Shown piece after piece: positions 6,787-49,536 of a stretch of 64,000 bases of DNA (its first letter is position 1; each line of letters opens with the position of its first letter). The stretch lies in contig OZ024754.1 of NCBI GenBank assembly GCA_964016885.1, positions 11,160,001-11,224,000 of the forward strand. Direction: 5' to 3'. Below the pieces are notes generated by a model. It saw nothing but the letters and a program-made list of their open reading frames with translations. It had not been told where the DNA came from and made no database searches. Position numbers and translations under genes: made by a program. Origin of the DNA: Eledone cirrhosa. Taxonomy: Eukaryota.

Positions 6787-7895
6787 TACCCACTCTACTA
6801 CCCATAGTATCGAGGACTGTGGTACGTTATGGTCCACCGGGTTCCTTACCACACTTCCTTCGTTTAGATAGATAGATATTAAAGACTAGCACTCACAGGA
6901 CAGGGAGAGGGGAGGGGACGAGAGAAAAAAATTGTACCCACAGAGAAAATCTGTTCGTTGTAACAAAATATACAAATTAACTAAACTTGTATTTGAGAAA
7001 ATTATGAAACGAAAATAATTTAAAAAATAGTTATTAATCAGCACACTTTACATATTAGAGTTATTGCTGTATTCTGAGTGGGATGGGATCTTAAAAGATT
7101 ATAAAAGACCCAGTTTTATGAAACCCAAGAACAGAGGCGTTTTGTTAATTCTATAACACACCCAAATCAAAATTCCATGTATGCTAGAAACTATTTGAAA
7201 AATGTTTTTCTTTTCTTTTGAAAGTGACGGAAGTTTAGCTTTATGAAACAACGATAAATCTAATGTCAAGTTGAATTAAAGAATTTACCAGCTATACATA
7301 GATATAATTTGTTGTCGAAGCGGCAAAGGCTCAGCAGTCTGGCCCTAACACTTTACTAAACATACATATTTACACACACAAATACATACAAATATACACA
7401 TACATATATATATATACACATATATATATATATACATATATACACAGAAACACATATATATATACATATATGCACACATATATACATATACATATATGCA
7501 CACATATATACACATAAATATACACATATATACACATATATATACACACATATATATACACACATATATATACACATATATACACACATATATACACATA
7601 TATACATACACATATACACATATATATACACACATATACATACACACATATACACACACATATACACACACATATACACACACATATATACATACATATA
7701 TATATACATACATATATATATACACATATATATACACATATATATACACACATATATACACATATATATACACACATATATACACATATATATACATACA
7801 TATACATACATATATATACATACACATATATATACATACACATATATATACATACACATATATATACATACATACATATACATACATACATATAC

Positions 7896-7940
<45 letters not shown>

Positions 7941-10015
7941 CACATATATACATACATATATATACACATATATATACACATATATATACACATATATATA
8001 CATACATATATATACACATATATACACACATATATACACATATATATACACACATATATACATATACACACATATACACACATATATATACACACACATA
8101 TATATATACACACACATATATATATACACACACATATATATATACACACACATATATATATACACACACATATATATATACACACACATATATATACACA
8201 CACATATATATATACACACACATATATATATACACACACATATATATATACACACACATATATATATACACACATATATATACACACACATATATATACA
8301 CACACATATATATATACACACACATATATATATACACACATATATATATACACACACATATATATATACACACACATATATATATACACACACATATATA
8401 TATACACACACATATATATATACACACACATATATATATACACACATATATATATATACACACATATATATATATATACACACATATATATATATATACA
8501 CACATATATATATATATACACACATATATATATATACACACATATATATATATACACACATATATATATACACACACATATATATATATACACACATATA
8601 TATATATACACACATATATATATATACACACATATATATATATACACACATATATATATATACACATATATATATATATATACATACACATATATATATA
8701 TATACATACACATATATATATATATATACACATATATATATACACATATATATATATACACATATATATATATATACACACATATATATATATATACACA
8801 TATATATATATATATACACATATATATATATACACACATATATATATATACACACATATATATATATACACACATATATATATATACACACATATATATA
8901 TATACACACATATATATATATACACACATATATATATATACACACATATATATATATACACACATATATATATATATATACACACACATATATATATATA
9001 CACATATATATATATATACACATATATATATATATATACACACATATATATATATATACACACATATATATATATATATATACACACATATATATATATA
9101 TACACACATATATATATATATATACACACATATATATATATACACATATATATATACACACACATATATATATATACACACATATATATATATATATACA
9201 CACATATATATATATATATACACACATATATATATATACACATATATATATATATACACATATATATATATATACACATATATATATATATACACATATA
9301 TATATATATACACATATATATATATATACACATATATATATATATACACATATATATATATATACACATATATATATATATATACACATATATATATATA
9401 TATACACATATATATATATATATACACATATATATATATATATACACATATATATATATATATACACATATATATATATATATACACATATATATAAATA
9501 TACACATATATATATATATATACACATATATATATATATATACACATATATATATATATATACACATATATATATATATATACACATATATATATATATA
9601 TACACATATATATAAATATACACATATATATATATACACATATATATATATATACACACATATATATATATATACACATATATATATATACACATATATA
9701 TATATACACATATATATATATACACATATATATATATACACATATATATATATACACATATATATATATATACACATATATATATATATACACATATATA
9801 TATATATACACATATATATATATATATACACATATATATATATATATATACACATATATATATATATATACACATATATATATATATATACACACATATA
9901 TATATATATACACATATATATATATATATACACATATATATATATATATACACATATATATATATATACACATATATATATATATACACACATATATATA
10001 TATATATACACATAT

Positions 10016-10474
10016 GGTGGCTGCCAACTCGTTTTCGAGTACGGCCACTACTTTATATCCATGTAGGAGAACCCCTACTGATGCGCTGAACGAGTGCGAC
10101 TTTTTAGTCCAGCCAGCGACTTGAAAGCTCTGGTACAAACACTACACTTGTGACAATCATTGACACATAGTGCTGGGCCCATGGTACCATGTGACGACAA
10201 ATGCAGAGAGATCTCCAGATATAAAGCAATGCCTGTGCCGTGAAGCTTTTATAGTGAGCAAAGGCACTGCACAAAGCCAGTCCCACTCTCTTAACCAAGA
10301 TGATATTTACCAAAAAGAAGAACAAGTCAACATCATTGGATACCATCAGGGTTGCAGGTGTTATATCAGAGTTTTCCTTCTCCTAGAATTCTGCCTTGAC
10401 AAAGGCTAAGGGGTCATCTCTCCCGGTGATTTTGGATGGCCATTGACTCTCAAGAGCTCCTTTGCCTTTTGACA
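10016..10474 (-). mobile_element. Bipartite non-autonomous RTE-like element, copy 1 (shortest)
   Basis: Same 3' end (CTCGAAAACGAGTTGGCAGCCACC + (AT)n) as copies 2 and 3; carries CTAGGAGAAGGAAAACTCTG and the C2H2 relic. Confidence 0.8.
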
Positions 10475-11723
10475 TACATATATACACATATACATACATA
10501 CATATATACACATATACATATACACACATACATACATACACATACATACATACATATACACACATACACATATATACATATACATACACATATATACATA
10601 TACATACATACACATACATATACATATATATACACACACACACACATACATACATATACATATACATACATACATATATATACATACATACATACATACA
10701 TACATATACATATACATACATACACATATACACACACATACATACATATATATACATATACATACATATATATACATATACATACATATATATATATATA
10801 TACATACATACATACATACATATACATACATACATACACATACATACATACATACATATACATACATATACACATACACATACATATATACATACACACA
10901 CATACATACACACATATACATATACATAAATATATATATACACATACATATACACACACATATATATACATATACATACACATATACATACATATACATA
11001 AATATATATATATATATACACATACATACATATATATATATACACATATACATAAATATATACATATACATACACACACACATACATATATATATACATA
11101 TACATACACACATATATACATACATATACATAAACATATATATATACACATACACACACATACATATATATATATACACACATACATACACACATATATA
11201 CACATATACATACACATACATATATACACACACATACATATATACATATATATATACATACATATATATACATATACACACATATACACATACACACACA
11301 TACATATACATACACATATATATACATACATATACATACATATATATATATATATACACACATACACACATACACACACACACACATATACATATACATA
11401 TACATACATACATATATATACATACACACACACATATATATATACATATACATACACACATACATATACATATACATACACATATATATATACATACACA
11501 TACATACACATATATACATACACATATATATATACATATACATACATATATATATATACACATACACACACACATATATATACACACACATACATATACA
11601 TACACACACATATACATACACATACGCACATATATATATACACATATACATACATACACATATACATACATACACATATATACATACATACATACATACA
11701 CATATACATACATACATACATAT

Positions 11724-12265
11724 GGTGGCTGCCAACTCGTTTTCGAGTACGGCCACTACTTTATAACCATGTAGGAGAACCCCTACCGATACGCTGAACG
11801 AGTGTGACTTTTTAGTCCAGCCAGCAACTTGAAAACTCCGGTACAAACACTACACCTGTGACAACTATTGACACATAGTGCTGGGCCCATGGTACCATGT
11901 AATGACAAGTGCAGAGAGATCTCCAGATACAAAGCAATGCCTGTGCCGTGAAGCTTTTATAGTGAGCAAAGGCACTGCACAAAGCCAGTCCCACTCTCTT
12001 AACCAAGATGATATTTACCAAAAAGAAGAACAAGTCAACATCATTGGATACCATCAGGGTTGCAGGTGTTATATCAGAGTTTTCCTTCTCCTAGAATTCT
12101 GCCTTGACAAAGGCTAAGGGGTCATCTCTCCCGGTGATTTTGGATGGCCATTGACTCTTAAGAGCTCCTTTGCCCTTTGACAGGTTTTGTTTTTAGTCCT
12201 GCAGGATGTCCAAAGTCACCCTCCTCACCAAGAAACCTTAGTGGGGTTGCCAGTTTAGTCGCCAA
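11724..12265 (-). mobile_element. Bipartite non-autonomous RTE-like element, copy 2
   Basis: Homologous to copy 1 with scattered substitutions; extends ~83 bp further 5' to TTGGCGACTAAACTGG. Confidence 0.8.
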
Positions 12266-12416
12266 TATATACATATATATATATATATACACATATATAT
12301 ATATATATATACACATATATATATATATATATACACATATATATATATATATATACACATATATATATATATATATACACATATATATATATATATATAC
12401 ACATATATATATATAT

Positions 12417-12457
<41 letters not shown>

Positions 12458-13502
12458 TATATATACACATATATATATATACACATATATATATATACAC
12501 ATATATATATATACACATATATATATATATACACATATATATATATATACACATATATATATATATACACATATATATATATATATACACATATATATAT
12601 ATATACAGATATATATATATACAGATATATATATATATACACATATATATATATATACACATATATATATATATACACATATATATATATATACACATAT
12701 ATATATATATACACATATATATATATATACACATATATATACACATATATATATATATACACATATATATATATATACACATATATATATATATACACAT
12801 ATATATATATATACACATATATATATATATACACATATATATATATACACATATATATATATACACATATATGTATATATACACATATATATATATATAC
12901 ACATATATATATATATACACATATATATATATATACACATATATATATATATATACACATATATATATATATACACATATATATATATATATATACACAT
13001 ATATATATATATATACACATATATATATATATATACACATATATATATATACACATATATATATATATACACATATATATATATATACACATATATATAT
13101 ATACACATATATATATATACACATATATATATATACACACATATATATATATACACATATATATATATACACATATATATATATACACACATATATATAT
13201 ACACATATATATATATACACACATATATATATATACACACATATATATACACACACATATATATATATACACATACATATATATATATACACATATATAT
13301 ATATATATACACATATATATATATATACACATATATATATATATACACATATATATATATATATATACACATATATATATATATATATACACATATATAT
13401 ATATATATATACACATATATATATATATATATACACATATATATATATATATATACACATATATATATATATATATACACATATATATATATATATATAC
13501 AC

Positions 13503-13535
<33 letters not shown>

Positions 13536-13722
13536 TATATATATATATACACACATATATATATATATATACACATATATATATATATATACACATATAT
13601 ATATATATATATACACATATATATATATATATATACACATATATATATATATATATACACATATATATATATATATATACACATATATATATATATATAC
13701 ACATATATATATATATATACAC

Positions 13723-13766
<44 letters not shown>

Positions 13767-15350
13767 ATATATATATATATATACACATATATATATACAC
13801 ATATATATATATATATATATACACATATATATATACATATATATATACACATATATATATACACATATATATATATATATATACACACATATATATATAT
13901 ATATACACACATATATATATACACACATATATATAGACACATATATATAGACACATATATATAGACACATATATATAGACACATATATATAGACACATAT
14001 ATATAGACACATATATATATAGACACATATATATATAGACACATATATATATAGACACATATATATATAGACACATATATATATACACATATATATATAC
14101 ACATATATATATATACACATATATATATATACACATATATATATATACACATATATATATATACATATACACATATACATATATATATATACACATATAT
14201 ATATACATATATATATATACATATACACATATATATATACACATATATATACACATATATATATATACACATATTTATATATACACATATATATATATAT
14301 ACACATATTTATATATACACATATATATATATACACATATATATATATACACATATATATACACATATTTATATACACATATATATATACACATATATAT
14401 ATATACACACATATATACACACATATATATATACACATATATATATATACACACATATATATATATACACACATATATATATATACACATATATATATAT
14501 ATATATACACATATATATACACATATATATATATATACACATATATATATATATATACACATATATATATATACACACATATATATATACACACATATAT
14601 ATATACACACATATATATATATACACACATATATATATACACACATATATATATACACACATATATATATATACACACATATATATATATACACACATAT
14701 ATATATACACATATATATACACATATATATATACACACATATATATATATACACACACATATATATACACACATATATATACACACATATATATATATAC
14801 ACACATATATATACACACATATATATATACACACACATATATATATACACACACATATATATATACACACACATATATATATACACACACATATATATAT
14901 ACACACACATATATATATACACACACATATATATATACACACACATATATACACACATATATATACACACACATATATATACACACACATATATATACAC
15001 ACACATATATATATACACACACATATATATACACACACATATATATATACACACACATATATATATACACACACATATATATATACACACATATATATAT
15101 ATACACACATATATATATACACACATATATATATACACACATATATATATATACACACATATACATATATATATATACATATACACATATATATATATAC
15201 ACATATTTATATATACACATATATATATATACACATATATATATATACACATATATATATATACACATATATATATATACACATATATATATATACACAT
15301 ATATATATATACACATATATATACACATATATATATATACACATATATAT

Positions 15351-15960
15351 GGTGGCTGCCAACTCGTTTTCGAGTACGGCCACTACTTTATATCCATGTA
15401 GGAGAACCCCTACCAATGCGCTGAACGAGTGTGACTTTTTAGTCCAGCCAGCGACTTGAAAACTCTGGTACAAACACTACACTTGTGACAATTATTGACA
15501 CATAGTGCTGGGCCCATGGTACCATGTGACGACAAGTGCAGAGAGATCTCCAGATATAAAGCAATGCCTGTGCCGTGAAGCTTTTATAGTGAGCAAAGGC
15601 ACTGCACAAAGCCAGTCCCACTCTCTTAACCAAGATGATATTTACCAAAAAGAAGAACAAGTCAACATCATTGGATACCATCAGAGTTGCAGGTGTTATA
15701 TCAGAGTTTTCCTTCTCCTAGAATTCTGCCTTGACAAAGGCTAAGGGGTCATCTCTCCCGGTGATTTTGGATGGCCATTGACTCTTAAGAGCTCCTTTGC
15801 CCTTTGACAGGTTTTGTTTTTAGTCCTGCAGGATGTCCAAAGTCACCCTCCTCACCAAGAAACCTTGGTGGGGTTGCCAGTTTAGTCGCCAACGACCCGA
15901 CCATGAGACAGGTTGTACTGGGATACATGTTACCAGTAGCACCAACTAGTGACCTGACAT
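15351..15960 (-). mobile_element. Bipartite non-autonomous RTE-like element, copy 3 (longest)
   Basis: Minus strand: RTE-like 5'UTR, then [26 protein letters not shown] (~15410-15490), stem-loop CTCG-AAAA-CGAG and an (AT)n tail. Confidence 0.82.
15877..15921 (-). ncRNA. Candidate degenerate HDV-like ribozyme in the RTE-like 5'UTR
   Basis: CCAGT...ACTGG (P2), ACC/GGT (P3), T-GG and CTAA (J4/2) in HDV order; P1 5' strand not found. Confidence 0.35.
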
Positions 15961-18900
15961 AAATATATAAGTATATATATACATACATATATACATACAT
16001 ACATATATATATACATACATATATATATACATACATATATATATATACATACATATATATATATATATATACATACATATATATATACATACATACATAT
16101 ACATATATATACATACATACATATACATATACATACATATATATATACATACATACATATATATACACATATATATACACACGTATATATATATATACAC
16201 ACACATATATATATACACACACATATATATATATACACATATATATATATACACATATATATATACATACACATATATATACACATATATATACACACGT
16301 ATATATATATATACACACACATATATATATACACACACATATATATATATACACATATATATATATACACATATATATATATATACACATATATATATAT
16401 ATACACATATATATATATATACACACACATATATATATATATATACACATATATATATATACACATATATATATATACACATATATATATATACACATAT
16501 ATATATATACACATATATATATATACACATATATATATATACACATATATATATATACACACATATATATATATATACACATATATATATATACACACAT
16601 ATATATATATACACACATATATATATATACACACATATATATATATACACACATATATATATATACACATATATATATATATACACATATATATATATAT
16701 ACACATATATATATATACACATATATATATATACACATATATATATATACACATATATATATATACACATATATATATATACACATATATATATATATAC
16801 ACATATATATATATATACACATATATATATATATACACATATATATATATATACACATATATATATATATACACATATATATATACACACATATATATAT
16901 ACACACATATATATATATACACATATATATATATACACATATATATATATATACACATATATATATACACACATATATATATACACACATATATATACAC
17001 ACACATATATATATACACACACATATATATATACACACATATATATATACACACATATATATATACACACATATATATATACACATATATATACACGCAT
17101 ATATATATACACACATATATATACACACATATATATACACACATATATATACACACATATATATATACACATATATATATATACACATATATATATATAC
17201 ACATATATATATATACACATATATATATATACACATATATATATATACACATATATATACATATATACACATATATATATATATACACATATATATACAT
17301 ATATACACATATATATATATATATACACATATATATATATATATACACATATATATATATATATACACATATATATATATATACACATATATATATATAC
17401 ACATATATATATATACACACATATATATATATACACATATATATATATACACATATATATATATACACATATATATATATACACATATATATATATACAC
17501 ATATATATATATACACATATATATATATACACATATATATATATACACATATATATATATACACATATATATATATACACATATATATATATATACACAT
17601 ATATATATATACACATATATATATATATACACATATATATATATACACATATATATATATACACATATATATATACACATATATATATACACATATATAT
17701 ATACACACATATATATATACACACATATATATATATACACATATATATATATACACATATATATATATACACATATATATATACACATATATATATATAC
17801 ACATATATATATATACACATATATATATATACACATATATATATATACACATATATATATATACACATATATATATATACACATATATATATATACACAT
17901 ATATATATATACACATATATATATATACACATATATATATATACACATATATATATATACACACATATATATATATACACATATATATATATACACATAT
18001 ATATATATACACATATATATATATACACATATATATAGTGTATATATATGTGTATATATATATATGTGTATATATATATATGTGTATATATATATATGTG
18101 TATATATATATGTGTATATATATATGTGTATATATATATGTGTATATATATATGTGTATATATATATATGTGTATATATATATATGTGTATATATATATA
18201 TGTGTATATATATATATGTGTATATATATATATGTGTATATATATATATGTGTATATATATATATGTGTATATATATATATGTGTATATATATATATGTG
18301 TATATATATATATGTGTATATATATATATGTGTATATATATATATGTGTATATATATATATACACATATATATATATACACATATATATATATACACATA
18401 TATATATATACACATATATATATATACACATATATATATATACACATATATATATATACACATATATATATATACACATATATATATATACACATATATA
18501 TATATACACATATATATATATACACATATATATATATACACATATATATATATACACATATATATATATACACATATATATATATACACATATATATATA
18601 TACACATATATATATATACACATATATATATACACATATATATATACACATATATATATACACATATATATATACACATATATATATACACATATATATA
18701 TATACACATATATATATATACACATATATATATATACACATATATATATATACACATATATATATATACACATATATATATATACACATATATATATATA
18801 CACATATATATATATACACATATATATATATACACATATATATATACACATATATATATACACATATATATATACACATATATATACACATATATATATA

Positions 18901-21900
18901 CACACATATATATATATACACACATATATATATATACACATATATATATACACATATATATATACACATATATATATATACACATATATATATACACATA
19001 TATATATATACACATATATATATACACATATATATATACACACATATATATATACACACATATATATATACACACATATATATATACACATATATATATA
19101 TACACATATATATATATACACATATATATATATACACATATATATATATACACATATATATATATACACATATATATATACACATATATATATATACACA
19201 CATATATATACACACACACATATATATACACACATATATATATACACACATATATATATACACACATATACACATATATATATACACATATATATATACA
19301 CATATATATATACATATATATATACACACATATATACACACATATATATATACACACATATATATATACACACATATATATATACACACATATATATACA
19401 CACATATATATACACACATATATACACACATATATATACACACATATATACACACATATATATACACACATATATATACACACATATATATACACACATA
19501 TATATACACATATATATATACACATATATATATACACATATATATATATACACATATATATATACACACATATATATATACACACATATATATATACACA
19601 CATATATATATACACATATATATATACACACATATATATACACACACATATATATACACACACATATATATACACATATATATACACACACATATATATA
19701 CACATATATATATATACACATATATATATATACACATATATATATATACACATATATATATACACATATATATATACACATATATATATACACATATATA
19801 TATACACATATATATATACACATATATATATACACATATATATATACACATATATATATACACATATATATATACACATATATATATACACATATATATA
19901 TACACATATATATATACACATATATATATACACATATATATATACACATATATATATACACATATATATATACACATATATATATACACATATATATATA
20001 TACACATATATATATATACACATATATATATACACATATATATATATACACATATATATATATACACATATATATATATACACATATATATATATACACA
20101 TATATATATATACACATATATATATATACACATATATATATACACATATATATATATACACATATATATATACACATATATATATACACATATATATATA
20201 CACATATATATACACACATATATATACACACATATATATACACACATATATACACACACATATATACACATATATACACATATATACACATATATATACA
20301 CATATATATACACATATATATACACATATATATACACATATATATACACATATATATATACACATATATATATACACATATATATATACACATATATATA
20401 TACACATATATATATACACATATATATATACACATATATATATACACATATATATATATACACATATATATATACACATATATATATATACACATATATA
20501 TATATACACATATATATATACACATATATATATACACATATATATATACACATATATATATATACACATATATATATATACACATATATACATACACATA
20601 TATATATATACACATATATATATATACACATATATATATATACACATATATATACACATATATATATACACATATATATATATACACATATATACACATA
20701 TATATATACACATATATATATATACACATATATATATATACACATATATATACACATATATATATACACATATATATATACACATATATATACACATATA
20801 TATACACATATATATACACATATATATATACACATATATATACACATATATATATACACATATATATATACACATATATATATACACATATATATATACA
20901 CATATATATATACACATATATATATACACATATATATATACACATATATATATACACATATATATATATAGACATATATATATATACACATATATATATA
21001 TACACATATATATATATACACATATATATATATACACATATATATATACACATATATATATATACACATATATATATACACATATATATATATACACATA
21101 TATATATACACATATATATATACACATATATATATACACATATATATATACACATATATATATACACATATATATATACACATATATATATACACATATA
21201 TATATACACATATATATATACACATATATACACACATATATATACACACATATATATACACATATATATATATACACACATATATATACACATATATATA
21301 TATACACATATACACATATATATATATACACACATATATATATACACACATATATATACACACATATATATACACACATATATACACACATATATATATA
21401 CACACATATATATATACACACATATATATATACACACATATATATATACACACATATATACACACATATATATATACACACATATATATATACACACATA
21501 TATATATACACACATATATATATACACACATATATATATACACACATATATATATACACACATATATATATACACACATATATATATACACACATATATA
21601 TATACACACATATATATATACACACATATATATATACACATATATATATACACATATATATACACATATATATATATACACATATATATATATACACATA
21701 TATATATATACACATATATATATACACACACATATATACACACACATATATACACACACATATATATACACACATATATATACACACATATATATACACA
21801 TATATATATACACATATATATATACACACATATATATATACACACATATATATATACACACATATATATATACACACATATATATATACACACATATATA

Positions 21901-23401
21901 TATACACACATATATAGATACACACATATATAGATACACACATATATATATCCACATATATATATACACATATATATATACACATATATATATACACACA
22001 TATATATACACACACATATATACACATATATATACACATATATATATACACATATATATATATACACATATATATATATACACATATATATATACACATA
22101 TATATATATACACATATATATATACACATATATATATATACACATATATATATATACACATATATATATATACACACATATATATATATATACACATATA
22201 TATATATACACATATATATATATACACATATATATATATACACATATATATATATACACATATATATATATACACATATATATATATACACATATATATA
22301 TATACACATATATATATATACACATATATATATATACACATATATATATATACACATATATATATACACATATATATATATACACATATATATATACACA
22401 TATATATATACACATATATATATACACATATATATATACACATATATATATACACATATATATATACACATATATATATACACATATATATATACACATA
22501 TATAAACACATATATATATACACATATATATACACATATATATATACACATATATATAGACATATATATACACATATATATATAGACATATATATATACA
22601 CATATATATATACACATATATATATACACATATATATATATACACTTATACATACATATATATATACACTTATACATACATATATATACACACTTATACA
22701 TACATATATATACACACTTATACATACATATATATATACACTTATACATACATATATATATACACTTATACATACATATATATATACACTTATACATACA
22801 TATATATATATACACTTATACATACATATATATATACACTTATACATACATATATATATACACTTATACATACATATATATATACACTTATACATACATA
22901 TATATATACACTTATACATACATATATATATACACTTATACATACATATATATATATACACTTATACATACATATATATATATACACTTATACATACATA
23001 TATATATACACTTATACATACATATATATATATACACTTATACATACATATATATATACACTTATACATACATATATATATACACTTATACATACATATA
23101 TATATACACTTATACATACATATATATATACACTTATACATACATATATATATACACTTATACATACATATATATATACACTTATACATACATATATATA
23201 TACACTTATACATACATATATATATACACTTATACATACATATATATATACACTTATACATACATATATATATACACTTATACATACATATATATATACA
23301 CTTATACATACATATATATATACACTTATACATACATATATATATACACTTATACATACATATATATATACACTTATACATACATATATATATATACACT
23401 T

Positions 23402-23444
<43 letters not shown>

Positions 23445-37604: not shown

Positions 37605-40600
37605 CTTCTTCTTCTTCTTCTTCTTCTTCTTCTTCATCTTCTTCTTCATCTTCTTCTTGGTCTTCTTCTTCTTCTTCTTCTTCTTCTTCATCTTCTTCTT
37701 CTTGGTCTTCTTCTTCTTCTTCTTCTTGGTCTTCTTCTTCATCTTCTTCTTCTTCTTGGTCTTCTTCTTCTTCTTCTTCTTCTTCTTCTTCTTCTTCATC
37801 TTCTTCTTCTTCTTGGTCTTCTTCTTCTTCTTCTTCATCTTCTTCTTCTTGGTCTTCTTCTTCTTCTTCTTCTTCTTCTTCATCTTCTTCTTCTTCTTGG
37901 TCTTCTTCTTCTTCTTCTTCATCTTCTTCTTCTTCTTGGTCTTCTTCTTCTTCTTCTTCTTCATCTTCTTCTTCTTCTTGGTCTTCTTCTTCTTCTTCTT
38001 CATCTTCTTCTTCTTGGTCTTCTTTTTCTTCTTCTTCTTCTTCTTCATCTTCTTCTACTTCTTGGTCTTCTTATTCTTCTTCTTCTTCTTCATCTTCTTC
38101 TTCTTCTTGGTCTTCTTCTTCTTCTTCTTCTTCTTCATCTTCTTCTTCTTCTTGGTCTTCTTCTTCTTCTTCTTCTTCTTCTTCTTCATCTTCTTCTTCT
38201 TCTTCTTCTTCATCTTCTTCTTCTTCTTGGTCTTCTTCTTCATCTTCTTCTTCTTCTTGGTCTTCTTCTTCTTCTTCTTCTTCTTCATCTTCTTCTTCTT
38301 CTTGGTCTTCTTCTTCTTCTTCTTCTTCATCTTCTTCTTCTTCTTGGTCTTCTTCTTCTTCTTCTTCTTCTTCTTCTTCTTCATCTTCTTCTTCTTCTTC
38401 TTCTTCTTCTTCATCTTCTTCTTCTTCTTGGTCTTCTTCTTCTTCTTCTTCTTCATCTTCTTCTTCTTCTTGGTCTTCTTCTTCATCTACTTCTTCATCT
38501 TCTTCTTCTTCTTGGTCTTCTTCTTCTTCTTCTTCTTCTTCTTCATCTTCTTCTTCTTCTTGGTCTTCTTCTTCATCTTCTTCTTCTTCTTGGTCTTCTT
38601 CTTCTTCATCTTCTTCTTCTTCTTGGTCTTCTTCTTCTTCTTCTTCTTCATCTTCTTCTTCTTCTTGGTCTTCTTCTTCTTCTTCTTCTTCTTCATCTTC
38701 TTCTTCTTCTTGGTCTTCTTCTTCTTCTTCTTCTTCTTCATCTTCTTCTTCTTCTTGGTCTTCTTCTTCTTCTTCTTCTTCTTCATCTTCTTCTTCTTCT
38801 TCTTCTTCTTCATCTTCTTCTTCTTCTTGGTCTTCTTCTTCTTCTTCTTCTTCATCTTCTTCTTCTTCTTGGTCTTCTTCTTCTTCTTCTTCTTCTTCTT
38901 CTTCTTCTTCATCTTCTTCTTCTTCTTGGTCTTCTTCTTCTTCTTCTTCTTCATCTTCTTCTTCTTCTTGGTCTTCTTCTTCTTCTTCTTCTTCATCTTC
39001 TTCTTCTTCTTGGTCTTCTTCTTCTTCTTCTTCTTCTTCATCTTCTTCTACTTCTTGGTCTTCTTATTCTTCTTCTTCTTCTTCATCTTCTTCTTCTTCT
39101 TGGTCTTCTTCTTCTTCTTCTTCTTCTTCATCTTCTTCTTCTTCTTGGTCTTCTTCTTCTTCTTCTTCTTCTTCATCTTCTTCTTCTTCTTCTTCTTCAT
39201 CTTCTTCTTCTTCTTGGTCTTCTTCTTCATCTTCTTCTTCTTCTTGGTCTTCTTCTTCTTCTTCTTCTTCTTCATCTTCTTCTTCTTCTTGGTCTTCTTC
39301 TTCTTCTTCTTCTTCATCTTCTTCTTCTTCTTGGTCTTCTTCTTCTTCTTCTTCTTCTTCATCTTCTTCTTCTTCTTGGTCTTCTTCTTCTTCTTCTTCA
39401 TCTTCTTCTTCTTCTTGGTCTTCTTCTTCTTCTTCTTCATCTTCTTCTTCTTCTTGGTCTTCTTCTTCTTCTTGGTCTTCTTCTTCTTCATCTTCTTCTT
39501 CTTCTTGGTCTTCTTCTTCATCTTCTTCTTCTTCTTGGTCTTCTTCTTCTTCTTCTTCTTCTTCATCTTCTTCTTCTTCTTGGTCTTCTTCTTCTTCTTC
39601 TTCTTCATCTTCTTCTTCTTCTTGGTCTTCTTCTTCTTCTTCTTCTTCTTCATCTTCTTCTTCTTCTTGGTCTTCTTCTTCTTCTTCTTCTTCTTCTTCA
39701 TCTTCTTCTTCTTCTTGGTCTTCTTCTTCTTCTTCTTCTTCTTCATCTTCTTCTTCTTCTTGGTCTTCTTCTTCTTCTTCTTCTTCTTCTTCATCTTCTT
39801 CTTCTTCTTGGTCTTCTTCTTCTTCTTCTTCTTCTTCTTCATCTTCTTCTTCTTCTTGGTCTTCTTCTTCTTCTTCTTCTTCTTCATCTTCTTCTTCTTC
39901 TTGGTCTTCTTCTTCTTCTTCTTCTTCTTCATCTTCTTCTTCTTCTTGGTCTTCTTCTTCTTCTTCTTCATCTTCTTCTTCTTCTTGGTCTTCTTCTTCT
40001 TCTTCTTCATCTTCTTCTTCTTCTTGGTCTTCTTCTTCTTCATCTTCTTCTTCTTCTTGGTCTTCTTCTTCATCTTCTTCTTCTTCTTGGTCTTCTTCTT
40101 CATCTTCTTCTTCTTCTTGGTCTTCTTCTTCTTCTTCTTCTTCATCTTCTTCTTCTTCTTGGTCTTCTTCTTCTTCTTCTTCTTCTTCATCTTCTTCTTC
40201 TTCTTGGTCTTCTTCTTCTTCTTCTTCTTCTTCATCTTCTTCTTCTTCTTGGTCTTCTTCTTCTTCTTCTTCTTCTTCATCTTCTTCTTCTTCTTCTTCT
40301 TCATCTTCTTCTTCTTCTTGGTCTTCTTCTTCATCTTCTTCTTCTTCTTGGTCTTCTTCTTCTTCTTCTTCTTCTTCATCTTCTTCTTCTTCTTGGTCTT
40401 CTTCTTCTTCTTCTTCTTCATCTTCTTCTTCTTCTTGGTCTTCTTCTTCTTCTTCTTCTTCTTCATCTTCTTCTTCTTCTTGGTCTTCTTCTTCTTCTTC
40501 TTCATCTTCTTCTTCTTCTTGGTCTTCTTCTTCTTCTTCTTCATCTTCTTCTTCTTCTTGGTCTTCTTCTTCTTCTTGGTCTTCTTCTTCTTCATCTTCT

Positions 40601-43355
40601 TCTTCTTCTTGGTCTTCTTCTTCATCTTCTTCTTCTTCTTGGTCTTCTTCTTCTTCTTCTTCTTCTTCATCTTCTTCTTCTTCTTGGTCTTCTTCTTCTT
40701 CTTCTTCTTCATCTTCTTCTTCTTCTTGGTCTTCTTCTTCTTCTTCTTCATCTTCTTCTTCTTCTTGGTCTTCTTCTTCTTCTTCTTCTTCTTCATCTTC
40801 TTCTTCTTCTTGGTCTTCTTCTTCTTCTTCTTCTTCTTCATCTTCTTCTTCTTCTTGGTCTTCTTCTTCTTCTTCTTCATCTTCTTCTTCTTCTTGGTCT
40901 TCTTCTTCTTCTTCTTCTTCTTCATCTTCTTCTTCTTCTTGGTCTTCTTCTTCTTCTTCTTCTTCTTCATCTTCTTCTTCTTCTTGGTCTTCTTCTTCTT
41001 CTTCTTCATCTTCTTCTTCTTCTTGGTCTTCTTCTTCTTCTTCTTCATCTTCTTCTTCTTCTTGGTCTTCTTCTTCTTCTTCTTCTTCTTCATCTTCTTC
41101 TTCTTCTTGGTCTTCTTCTTCTTCTTCTTCTTCTTCATCTTCTTCTTCTTCTTGGTCTTCTTCTTCTTCTTCTTCATCTTCTTCTTCTTCTTGGTCTTCT
41201 TCTTCTTCTTCTTCATCTTCTTCTTCTTCTTGGTCTTCTTCTTCTTCTTGGTCTTCTTCTTCTTCATCTTCTTCTTCTTCTTGGTCTTCTTCTTCTTCTT
41301 CTTCATCTTCTTCTTCTTCTTGGTCTTCTTATTCTTCTTCTTCTTCATCTTCTTCTTCTTCTTGGTCTTCTTCTTCTTCTTCTTCATCTTCTTCTTCTTC
41401 TTGGTCTTCTTCTTCTTCTTCTTCTTCTTCATCTTCTTCTTCTTCTTGGTCTTCTTCTTTATCTTCTTCTTCTTGGTCTTCTTCTTCTTCTTCTTCTTCT
41501 TCATCTTCTTCTTCTTCTTGGTCTTCTTCTTCTTCTTCTTCTTCATCTTCTTCTTCTTCTTCTTCTTGGTCTTCTTCTTCTTCTTCATCTTCTTCTTCAT
41601 CTTCTTCTTGGTCTTCTTCTTCTTCTTCTTCTTCATCTTCTTCTTCTTCTTCTTCTTCTTGGTCTTCTTCTTCTTCTTCATCTTCTTCTTCTTCTTCTTC
41701 TTGGTCTTCTTCTTCTTCTTCATCTTCTTCTTCATCTTCTTCTTGGTCTTCTTCTTCTTCTTCTTCTTCTTCATCTTCTTCTTCTTCTTGGTCTTCTTCT
41801 TCTTCTTCTTCTTCATCTTCTTCTTCTTCTTGGTCTTCTTCTTCTTCTTCTTCTTCTTCATCTTCTTCTACTTCTTGGTCTTCTTATTCTTCTTCTTCTT
41901 CTTCATCTTCTTCTTCTTCTTGGTCTTCTTCTTCTTCTTCTTCTTCATCTTCTTCTTCTTCTTGGTCTTCTTCTTCTTCTTCTTCTTCTTCATCTTCTTC
42001 TTCTTCTTCTTCTTCATCTTCTTCTTCTTCTTGGTCTTCTTCTTCATCTTCTTCTTCTTCTTGGTCTTCTTCTTCTTCTTCTTCTTCTTCATCTTCTTCT
42101 TCTTCTTGGTCTTCTTCTTCTTCTTCTTCTTCATCTTCTTCTTCTTCTTGGTCTTCTTCTTCTTCTTCTTCTTCTTCATCTTCTTCTTCTTCTTGGTCTT
42201 CTTCTTCTTCTTCTTCATCTTCTTCTTCTTCTTGGTCTTCTTCTTCTTCTTCTTCTTCATCTTCTTCTTCTTCTTGGTCTTCTTCTTCTTCTTGGTCTTC
42301 TTCTTCTTCATCTTCTTCTTCTTCTTGGTCTTCTTCTTCTTCTTCTTCATCTTCTTCTTCTTCTTGGTCTTCTTATTCTTCTTCTTCTTCATCTTCTTCT
42401 TCTTCTTGGTCTTCTTCTTCTTCTTCTTCATCTTCTTCTTCTTCTTGGTCTTCTTCTTCTTCTTCTTCTTCTTCATCTTCTTCTTCTTCTTGGTCTTCTT
42501 CTTTATCTTCTTCTTCTTGGTCTTCTTCTTCTTCTTCTTCTTCTTCATCTTCTTCTTCTTCTTGGTCTTCTTCTTCTTCTTCTTCTTCATCTTCTTCTTC
42601 TTCTTCTTCTTGGTCTTCTTCTTCTTCTTCATCTTCTTCTTCATCTTCTTCTTGGTCTTCTTCTTCTTCTTCTTCTTCATCTTCTTCTTCTTCTTCTTGG
42701 TCTTCTTCTTCTTCTTCATCTTCTTCTTCTTCTTCTTCTTGGTCTTCTTCTTCTTCTTCATCTTCTTCTTCATCTTCTTCTTGGTCTTCTTCTTCTTCTT
42801 CTTCTTCTTCATCTTCTTCTTCTTCTTGGTCTTCTTCTTCTTCTTCTTCTTCATCTTCTTCTTCTTCTTGGTCTTCTTCTTCTTCTTCATCTTCTTCTTC
42901 ATCTTCTTCTTGGTCTTCTTCTTCTTCTTCTTCTTCTTGGTCTTCTTCTTCTTCTTCTTCTTCATCTTCTTCTTCTTCTTGGTCTTCTTCTTCTTCATCT
43001 TCTTCTTCTTCTTCTTCTTGGTCTTCTTCTTCTTCTTCATCTTCTTCTTCATCTTCTTCTTGGTCTTCTTCTTCTTCTTCTTCTTCTTCATCTTCTTCTT
43101 CTTCTTGGTCTTCTTCTTCTTCTTCATCTTCTTCTTCTTCTTGGTCTTCTTCTTCTTCTTCATCTTCTTCTTCATCTTCTTCTTGGTCTTCTTCTTCTTC
43201 TTCTTCTTCTTGGTCTTCTTCTTCTTCTTCTTCATCTTCTTCTTCTTCTTGGTCTTCTTCTTCTTCTTCATCTTCTTCTTCTTCTTCTTCTTGGTCTTCT
43301 TCTTCTTCTTCATCTTCTTCTTCATCTTCTTCTTGGTCTTCTTCTTCTTCTTCTT
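37605..43355 (-). repeat. 5.75-kb (GAA)n-based satellite with GAT and GACCAA interruptions; expanded RTE 3' tail
   Basis: (TTC)n punctuated by ATC and TTGGTC on +; directly abuts TGCCCACTTATTCC, the LINE 3' end. Confidence 0.92.
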
Positions 43356-48712: not shown

Positions 48713-49125
48713 TCTTTTCAAATAATCAAAAGTTGTTAGTGAATTAAAAGATGACAAGAAAGGTTGGATATGACCAGTTTAGGGGAAACCAACACCAAAG
48801 AAAAAGAAAATAAATACCTTTTCTGTTTTTCAGACATTTTGTTATACTGAAACAATAAATAGCAACAATAATTAAATAACAATAATTATAACGAATTTAG
48901 CACTACTAACGTTGGTGAAATGGGTATTTATTACATTTATAAGTCTAGCCACAAAATATAGCAGTTACGTTAGAAGCCAGAGACAGATATATTTCTTTAT
49001 TTACCATAAAGGCATATAGCCAGAGACAGATATTTAGGTAATTAGAATTTGTGTATATGCGTGTGTGTGTGTGTATGTGCATATGCATACATTTATATGT
49101 ATGAATATATAAATATAAACGTGCA

Positions 49126-49536
49126 GCGACAGATATGCGTGGGAGGCTGGCATATATCTCTCTCAAAGTCAGATGTCCCCAGGTTATGTTCTGAATGCGT
49201 CGAAGCAGGCGAATGTAGGTGCCATCAAGGCACTTTTGTTGTTTGGATGAAAGCGTTCCATGTTTCACTTCCATATAGCAAGATTGGTTGAATTGTTACT
49301 TGTGCATAAAAGGAGAGTAAGATTAGCTGGCCACTACCATCGTGCCTCCTATGAGGCTGTGTCCCCATTAGTGCTTTGGAAACCACAAGCAGTCACTAAT
49401 AACAAAGGATGCAAGCTCTCCTATCCCGATGTTATCTCCAGAGATTCTGGTATTGAAATCCAGGTTTTGGCAACGGCAATGAACAACAGACCCACGTGGA
49501 GATCAATTCTTGAGTCGATTTCAGCTGATGATGATG
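49126..49536 (+). mobile_element. RTE LINE 3' fragment with 5' inversion and TSD
   Basis: Minus part ILLYGSETW...LDGTYIRLLRRIQNITW...IYASLPRIS; plus part LLVHKRRVRLAGH...VLWKP...AMNNRPTWR + (GAT)n; ATAAACGTGCA (49115-49125) / ATAAACATGCA (49537-49547). Confidence 0.85.

Follow-up and report, generated by a model that had tools for sequence, protein, structure and literature searches.

The 64,000-nucleotide window of the Eledone cirrhosa genome analysed here contains, within a long field of alternating repeat, copies of a young, high-copy, bipartite non-autonomous RTE-type short element of 610 bp. The observations set out below show that this element is targeted and tail-less and that it generates TSDs, and make it probable that copies stacked in the repeat are retrotransposed jointly with the linker between them and that the carried repeat is edited from A to G before insertion. 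A first-pass annotation had read three independent insertions in the window. There are two, the monomer c3 and a c2-linker-c1 dimer (Table 1), since the latter is one composite dispersed over 11 loci.

Table 1. Features of the repeat field and of the element copies within it, by position in the window
Feature	Position	Strand	Remarks
Strand-polar (TA/CA)n field, insertion target	7361..23444		A/C on +, G/T on -
c1, 3' member of composite	10016..10474	-	Element positions 152-610; 98.0% identical to element
AT/GT linker inside composite	10475..11723	-	1,249 bp; surplus sense-strand G relative to sister copies
c2, 5' member of composite, 5'-truncated	11724..12265	-	Element positions 69-610; 97.8% identical to element
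c3, full-length monomer, separate insertion	15351..15960	-	610 bp; 100% identical to element
3'-terminal hairpin and end motif	15351..15382	-	87% to 3' end of intact RTE
ORF-end remnant with C2H2 finger	15416..15505	-	Non-coding relic
RTE 5'UTR-like part	15561..15767	-	Element positions 194-400; 69% to 5'UTR of intact RTE in genome

The element and its copies in the window

The coordinates of the three minus-strand copies, and their common 3' end with its CTCG-AAAA-CGAG hairpin (15363-15374 in c3), are as first annotated, but the repeat field, then thought to end at 15960, continues to 23444. The 5' ends are indeed staggered but the substitutions are not all private, c2 alleles 469, 478 and 495 being common to copies on other contigs. 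The three copies fall into three separate groups of the copy tree, which bears out the earlier view that they are not a local tandem duplication. c3 is matched at 100% over 610 bp in at least 10 other places (among the 40 of 952 candidates that were scored), and these matches are not due to chance. Its 5' junction is present at this locus only, so the idea that c3 had carried in its own 5' flank was rejected.

The bipartite composition proposed for the element is upheld. Its 5' part matches the 5'UTR of intact RTEs (L218, L220-L225) at 69% over 229 columns and its 3' part matches their ORF end and 3' terminus at 78% (41 nt) and 87% (30 nt), while six-frame translation of the copies revealed no RT, endonuclease or long ORF. 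The ORF end with a C2H2 finger is present as a remnant (PF00096, E 5.8e-5, its 23.8 bits lying below the 25.2 cut-off), although the stop lies one codon beyond its annotated place, c3 ending in ...SAHW*. No tRNA head was found in the element, and Rfam gave no significant match to it, so that it shows no ribozyme. The 3' hairpin folds with a z-score of -1.86 (8 of 200 shuffles were equally good) and the 5' end with one of -0.05; the hairpin and end motif together are likely to act as the recognition signal for the RT. The hallmarks of target-primed reverse transcription (TPRT), the mechanism first proposed, are all found, namely a fixed 3' end, 5' truncation, TSDs and 5' inversion.

Insertion into AT/GT microsatellites

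Exact element 3' ends number 26,650 genome-wide and, in the first 100 of these, AT follows directly in 94. Sequencing-run depth was very high in one of four runs, 3-19 in two and none in the fourth. Among 172 copies examined, which are mostly best matches to c1-c3 rather than a random sample, alternating AT/GT flanks are seen on the 5' side of 155 and on the 3' side of 154, compared with 49 of 1597 background 30-mers (about 3%) and two of 28 control ends of a CR1-like element. The flank has TG>CA in 157 of the 172. Insertion, in agreement with the (TA)n targeting first proposed, is thus confined almost wholly to AT/GT microsatellite, at fixed phase and orientation. Since the polarity of the tract fixes the orientation of the element, neighbouring copies are co-oriented (15/16 of those less than 2 kb apart, with 1.0 pair expected).

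TSDs are of 10-20 bp, with a mean of 11.2 nt against 5.9 nt in 200 permutations (permutation maximum 7.8), though they are unreadable in most pure repeats, the copies in the window included. According to the first-pass annotation, an (AT)n tail is newly added at each insertion. However, the TSD starts at offset 0, directly at the element end, in 11 of the 16 cases that are informative, and (RT)n runs are no longer on the 3' side (median 48 nt) than on the 5' side (44 nt; p=0.58, 125 copies). Repeat on the 3' side alone is found, by threshold, in 14 of the 172 copies, most of which are inversions, adjacent copies or have near-threshold flanks. The pattern of tail-type seeding, repeat at the 3' end and absent from the 5' side, is therefore not that of the element.

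Composite dimers and trimers

Allele 468G and the linker sequence are common to 10 of 12 matches to the c2-linker-c1 junction, and L234 adds one locus. The two matches dropped, L112 and L114, are without allele 468G and the landmarks, and were taken to be independent truncations at a microhomology hotspot. The flanks of the composite loci are unrelated. The upstream copy is retained in seven composites, whose linkers measure 1249-1365 bp, and 5' truncation varies, sister composites starting at element position 1, 1, 23, 42 or 188, or in an inversion. A trimer junction occurs at four loci and a second dimer lineage at two. From these dispersed dimers and the trimer it follows that microsatellite moves as read-through cargo: stacked copies and the microsatellite between them are likely to have been transcribed and reverse-transcribed together, reverse transcription of the present composite probably beginning at c1. 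It also follows that stacked copies should not be counted as separate insertions. In its 6-mer profile the linker has a likeness of 0.52-0.54 to the field, whereas likeness between the two outer flanks is 0.94. Of the roughly 14,470 microsatellite bases in the field, 1,249 (~9%) are repeat that was carried in, so that the element is not the builder of the field, contrary to the feedback loop first suggested.

Two other accounts of the stacked copies deserve mention. That all three inserted independently, each with an (AT)n tail expanding into the next target and so building the field, would suit the different subfamilies of c1, c2 and c3 and the 14 one-sided copies, but the former implies only that the dimer arose once by stacking, and most of the latter have the simpler explanations given above. 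Given that this linker and c1 junction recur at 11 loci, that 11 of 16 informative TSDs show no tail and that there is no 3' length excess, this account is very improbable. We give equally little credence to an origin of the composites in segmental duplication, ectopic recombination between microsatellites or misassembly. Some repeats are indeed local duplicates (L093 and L094, and tandem copies on the unplaced contig C177), and two lineages lie in part on unplaced contigs. Nevertheless, homology stops at the element 3' end with unrelated sequence outside, composite 5' ends range from position 1 to within the linker, one copy has an inversion of the twin-priming type and, besides the local duplicate and C177, there are eight chromosome-scale sites on seven contigs.

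A-to-G changes in the carried linkers

Comparison of the linkers across copies shows that G has been gained in place of A, and on the sense strand alone. Of the 32 columns that vary in ungapped landmark segments, 31 are A/G, with 12 singleton G and no singleton A (p=0.0005, an optimistic value, as are all for the linkers, since linker lineages are not independent). A five-lineage model of gain predicts 27.2 fixed A, with 27 seen, while the corresponding model of loss predicts 1.7 fixed G, with 11 seen. A>G accounts for 7 of 10 changes in the element bodies of composites, compared with 8 of 41 in the remaining young copies (p=0.004), and for all four changes in the linker of the second dimer; L234 has four A>G in 6 nt and zero other substitutions. 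The linker RNA is predicted to be 95-96% paired. The gains are thus likely to represent ADAR edits made in (AU)n RNA paired with itself and then fixed by reverse transcription, in so far as genomic sequence can indicate this.

The one-way, clustered A>G pattern is restricted to composites. When the singletons of all 172 copies are pooled, A>G and T>C are equally frequent (32 each), and a 5'-neighbour bias of the ADAR kind is not clear, G preceding A in 6 of 32 against 30 of 156 in the background; in (UA)n each A has a 5' U. Changes in the autonomous ORF run the other way (G>A 50, A>G 25), three C>T changes are seen in copy three of the L091 trimer, and the second dimer shows, in its downstream copy, no change from A in L117 to G in L116.

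Accepting targeting and multimers as real, the A/G differences might instead come from DNA slippage after insertion or from gene conversion between arrays. Gapped alignment of any (RT)n arrays produces A/G mismatches, a DNA-level tandem duplicate shows them too, a genome-wide A>G excess is absent and editing is read from DNA alone. However, the differences in that duplicate are balanced (9:6 and 10:11) where near-ungapped linker pairs differ 13:0 and 14:2. Furthermore, 9/9 linkers retain a segment length of 54 nt and 8/9 one of 72 nt, none of 21 core G is ever lost, linker 2 has in its unique part, by eye, seven A/G and no C/T columns in four copies, and the L234 cluster lies in non-repetitive sequence. 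Slippage or conversion therefore seems unlikely, though it is the least implausible of the alternatives.

The preferred reading, of editing before insertion, would involve the following steps. An intact sister RTE may provide the protein and recognise the common 3' hairpin, with nicking or priming that favours ATRT on the G/T strand, a preference which would leave neighbours co-oriented. Transcription from an upstream copy would read through to the 3' end of the downstream copy, which would prime TPRT; meanwhile the (AU)n linker would fold on itself, ADAR would turn A to I, and the RT would fix I as G. A more speculative extension, which we hold to be possible but doubtful, is that RTE retrotransposition and ADAR form a germline RNA-to-DNA editing loop, (AT)n borne by UTRs and read-through transcripts being edited from A to I and re-inserted as strand-polar (AT/GT)n mosaics that offer new oriented targets and slippage seeds. 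Were it true, the loop would help to make the abundant one-strand AT/GT microsatellites of this genome and each composite would log germline editing round by round. If the gains are ADAR edits, composite loci preserve in DNA the history of germline RNA editing, and the long-open question of whether retrotransposition makes A-to-I edits heritable becomes testable, since the genome reveals source copies, daughter copies and the direction of change.

The autonomous sister element

The genome contains intact frames of 1214-1244 aa, with ends homologous to those of the short element, that carry an APE rather than an RLE endonuclease, an RT and three C2H2 fingers; PF03372 (APE) and PF00078 (RT) are above cut-off in one 1244-aa frame. 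We take these to be RTEs from their architecture and from C-terminal motifs, the 89 homologues bearing no clade names. Their 3' ends lie inside the same AT/GT repeats in 23/23 cases, and this RTE, which is young, intact and directed at the same target, probably drives the short element. Being only 69-87% identical, it is a sister family, so that the autonomous partner sought by the first-pass annotation was found as a relative with homologous ends rather than as one sharing both termini. Among the first 100 of 205 matches, obtained with a pattern that could miss the parent, no such direct parent was found, the exclusion pattern matching indel variants only. The C2H2 peptide led to no longer protein. 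A peptide search yielded at least 150 identical-peptide matches (longest frame 198 aa), and the 20 odd-frame or paired and 20 ordinary loci taken from these all contained the short element at the matching site. Thirty RVT_1 loci were also rejected, as an unrelated family with ATT tails.

Relationship to known elements

Dong, Waldo and Mino are LINEs specific for microsatellites. The RTE-type element described here joins such repeat-targeting LINEs, and resembles Togen and some HERO elements, also microsatellite-specific, in phase-specific insertion into simple repeats and tandem stacking in the target (PMC4640811). According to the same source most target-specific LINEs belong to the RLE, Tx1 and R1 groups, whereas the short element probably relies on an APE-bearing RTE-type protein. 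Bipartite non-autonomous RTEs, as described for Bov-A, the dimer Bov-A2, RTESINE, MAR4 and WALLSI3, similarly combine a 5'UTR piece with an RTE 3' end and have no coding capacity (PMC5786205). In contrast to these, the dimers and trimers here are low-copy read-through lineages that have captured 0.15-1.3 kb of microsatellite, and insertion is nearly confined to (RT)n repeats. The first TSD base matches the element 3' end, as in other RTE insertions for which microhomology priming was proposed, but those are described as favouring a run of T about 10 nt upstream and as having a repeat tail (PMC6007223, PMC13295347), whereas the present element goes into a polar AT/GT tract and shows no tail.

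Clustered changes of one type are known from ADAR hyper-editing and APOBEC DNA editing, self-folding repeats being ADAR substrates, and a 2016 review in this group of papers called the role of ADAR in Alu subfamily evolution undetermined (PMC5625713, PMC2873906, PMC4982230). The editing described there is either A>G at the RNA level or G>A at the DNA level, unlike the A>G that here appears fixed in genomic retrocopies. Our search of titles and abstracts, mostly of open papers, found no report of ADAR edits fixed in LINE retrocopies, nor of this element, which Repbase or Dfam, outside the scope of the search, may already name.

An RTE LINE from Octopus vulgaris brain has a single ORF of 1109 aa with EN, RT and a C2H2 finger, the frames here having about 1180 aa when counted from the first Met, and is like L218-L225, by description, in its microsatellite-rich 3'UTR; the passages concerning it describe neither targeting nor short derivatives (PMC9115989). 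Seeding of microsatellites by LINE tails has been described for RTE in Lepidoptera (PMC2887409) and for CR1-L3 and Rex in snakes (PMC6050309). The present element is similarly a LINE-type spreader of simple repeats, but in those cases the repeat is the 3' end, whereas here it travels as internal cargo and the repeats on either side were there before insertion. Microsatellite can evidently spread without tail synthesis, in kilobase tracts carried between stacked copies. The seeding first proposed thus holds for this internal cargo, not for a 3' tail, and microsatellite is also seeded via the UTRs of the autonomous element.

Microsatellite targeting

Database searches gave 240 raw hits, from which 172 unique copies with flanks were retained, mostly best matches to the three window copies c1-c3 of the short element and not a random draw. 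An alternating purine-pyrimidine repeat lies at the 5' flank in 155 of these and at the 3' flank in 154. The corresponding backgrounds are 49/1597 for 30-mers from the window and 2/28 for the ends of an unrelated LINE, so that the microsatellite targeting proposed in the first-pass annotation is well supported. ATAT or ATGT follows the 3' end in 166/172 copies and ATAC in only one (among the first 100 genome-wide 3' ends listed, 94 have AT directly after them). The flank on the element's strand is TG, not CA, in 157/172, and this polarity of the target tract explains why neighbouring copies are co-oriented (15 of 16 less than 2 kb apart; 1.0 pair expected).

Features of the window
Feature	Position	Strand	Remarks
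(TA/CA)n field	7361-23444		strand-polar; holds c1-c3
c1	10016-10474	-	element positions 152-610
Linker	10475-11723	-	AT/GT microsatellite, 1,249 bp
c2	11724-12265	-	element positions 69-610
c3	15351-15960	-	element positions 1-610 of 610
Reversed polarity	18038-18348	G on +	310-bp part of field; local inversion of repeat
(CTT)n array	37605-43355		5.75 kb; CAT and GGT variant units, several frames open; probably plain satellite
LINE-like fragment	48945-49295	-	degenerate protein, by eye; no Pfam match
LINE-like fragment	~54639 region		degenerate protein, by eye

Three insertions (L013, L072, L169) differ in their 5' ends, represent at least two subfamilies and all occupy one position of another dispersed repeat, which shows site preference at the sequence level. 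L118-L147 form a young LINE family, which we take to be CR1-like; its members have ATT tails and an intact frame of 945 aa, and no tie to AT/GT repeats.

The exact 3'-end pattern of the short element occurs 26,650 times in a pattern search of the genome, which is animal-type, 3.0 Gb in size and may resemble that of a coleoid cephalopod in its repeat landscape, and c3 is matched at 100% in 10 other places among 40 scored. Truncated 5' ends cluster at element positions 152 and ~202-209 (bins of 20 and 18 among the 172 copies, some of them belonging to composites); the sequence at 152 starts like the true 5' end, which suggests microhomology at this pile-up. Sequencing runs X4-X19, labelled as 15 other organisms, contain at least half of the sequence words that make up the element; depth is low in the two that were mapped, and contamination, diet or relatives may account for this.

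The first-pass annotation also had each insertion adding a new (AT)n tail, which the insertion ends contradict. Own-flank target-site duplications average 11.2 nt, compared with 5.9 nt in permutations, and in 11 of 16 informative cases the duplication starts exactly where the element ends, the offset being 1 in one case and 7-23 in the other four. Alternating purine-T runs show no 3' excess of length (medians 48 nt at 3' and 44 nt at 5', 60 vs 62 copies, p=0.58).

Microsatellite carried as cargo

The window copies had been read as three independent insertions; two events are indicated instead. The linker-c1 junction occurs 12 times, and not in the control. The c3 junction is unique. Ten of the 12 matches share linker sequence and allele 468G (G at element position 468); the two lacking both were dropped as members of the composite, c2 plus linker plus c1. 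L234 is an eleventh member, and L093/L094 represent a single local duplication. Seven composites retain the upstream copy, which begins at element position 1, 1, 23, 42, 69 or 188 in six of them and has an inverted 5' piece in the other. Their linkers measure 1249-1365 bp, and their outer flanks are unrelated. In the copy tree the downstream copies group together with support (11 rows, L114 excluded and L234 not among them); bootstrap values had not stabilised. For the composite in the window, the outer flanks are 0.94 alike, while either scores 0.52-0.54 against the linker. The junction of a longer unit, which includes a third copy, is present at four loci, and a separate dimer with a 155-167 bp linker is found at two.

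The simplest reading of the composites is that stacked copies would be transcribed by read-through, with priming at the 3' end of the last copy. Imported linker makes up ~9% of the repeat in the field; the rest consists of regular units and probably grew by slippage. At L096 a composite lies directly beyond the 3' end of another LINE, by eye of restriction-endonuclease type.

A-to-G gain in the linker

Linkers were compared in segments between rare landmarks, where lengths are kept. Of the 32 variable columns in these segments 31 are A/G; 21 G are retained throughout, and the singletons comprise 12 G and no A. With one copy per lineage, the lineages not being independent of one another, 27 invariant A are observed where a model of G gain predicts 27.2, and 11 invariant G where a model of G loss predicts 1.7; for all nine copies the predictions are 32.6 (48 observed) and 4.1 (21 observed). 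Near-ungapped linker pairs differ 13:0 and 14:2, a DNA-level duplicate being balanced. A>G accounts for 7/10 changes in composite element bodies and 8/41 elsewhere, with four such changes inside 6 nt of L234. Folding predictions pair 95-96% of the linker RNA, and the best fit, which we consider reasonably probable, is that such self-paired RNA would be edited by ADAR before reverse transcription, fixing A-to-G in DNA. Against ADAR editing, A>G shows no asymmetry over all copies (32 vs 32), G>A is ahead in the autonomous ORF, and one trimer copy has three C>T.

Relationship to known elements

The short element is of the bipartite RTE kind. As far as the available text of each source goes, bipartite RTEs and the Bov-A2 dimer (PMC5786205), RTE priming signatures (PMC6007223), microsatellite seeding by LINE tails (PMC2887409; PMC6050309), repeat-specific LINEs in other groups (PMC4640811), an octopus RTE with C2H2 and a microsatellite 3'UTR (PMC9115989) and ADAR editing of self-folding repeats (PMC5625713) are already described; the effect of ADAR on retro-element copies is called undetermined (PMC4982230), and the short element is not among the active RTE families described in PMC13282606. 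No published account of this feature combination was found in literature largely excluding subscription papers, Repbase and Dfam. What is new relative to known bipartite RTEs is the behaviour: repeat-targeted, tailless, with microsatellite moved as cargo and, probably, RNA edits fixed in DNA.

The repeats targeted by the short element also house at least two older bipartite families (L036, L047, L071, L079, L096, L097, L112), which have its 5'UTR type and a similar 3' hairpin but different junctions.

A young intact RTE-type element in the genome (eight loci fetched) has frames of 1214-1244 aa with APE, RT and C2H2 fingers. Its identity to the short element is 69% in the 5'UTR, 78% at the ORF end and 87% at the 3' hairpin end. 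It is a sister and not the direct parent; genome searches, one by pattern, gave no closer parent among the matches listed. It is probably the source of the short element's protein. All 23 of its 3' ends (two are duplicates) lie in the same AT/GT repeats, and its UTRs contain GT, AT and ATT tracts, a second route of microsatellite seeding. In this young family (L218-L225, e.g. G000:C2:205637500-205645500) many frames exceed 1200 aa, and the UTRs are largely CA, CCA, GT, AT, ATT and T runs of varying length between copies. At L155, L158, L172 and L052, several short- and intact-element ends pass through (ATGT)n into one common downstream sequence, either a shared target repeat or 3' transduction.
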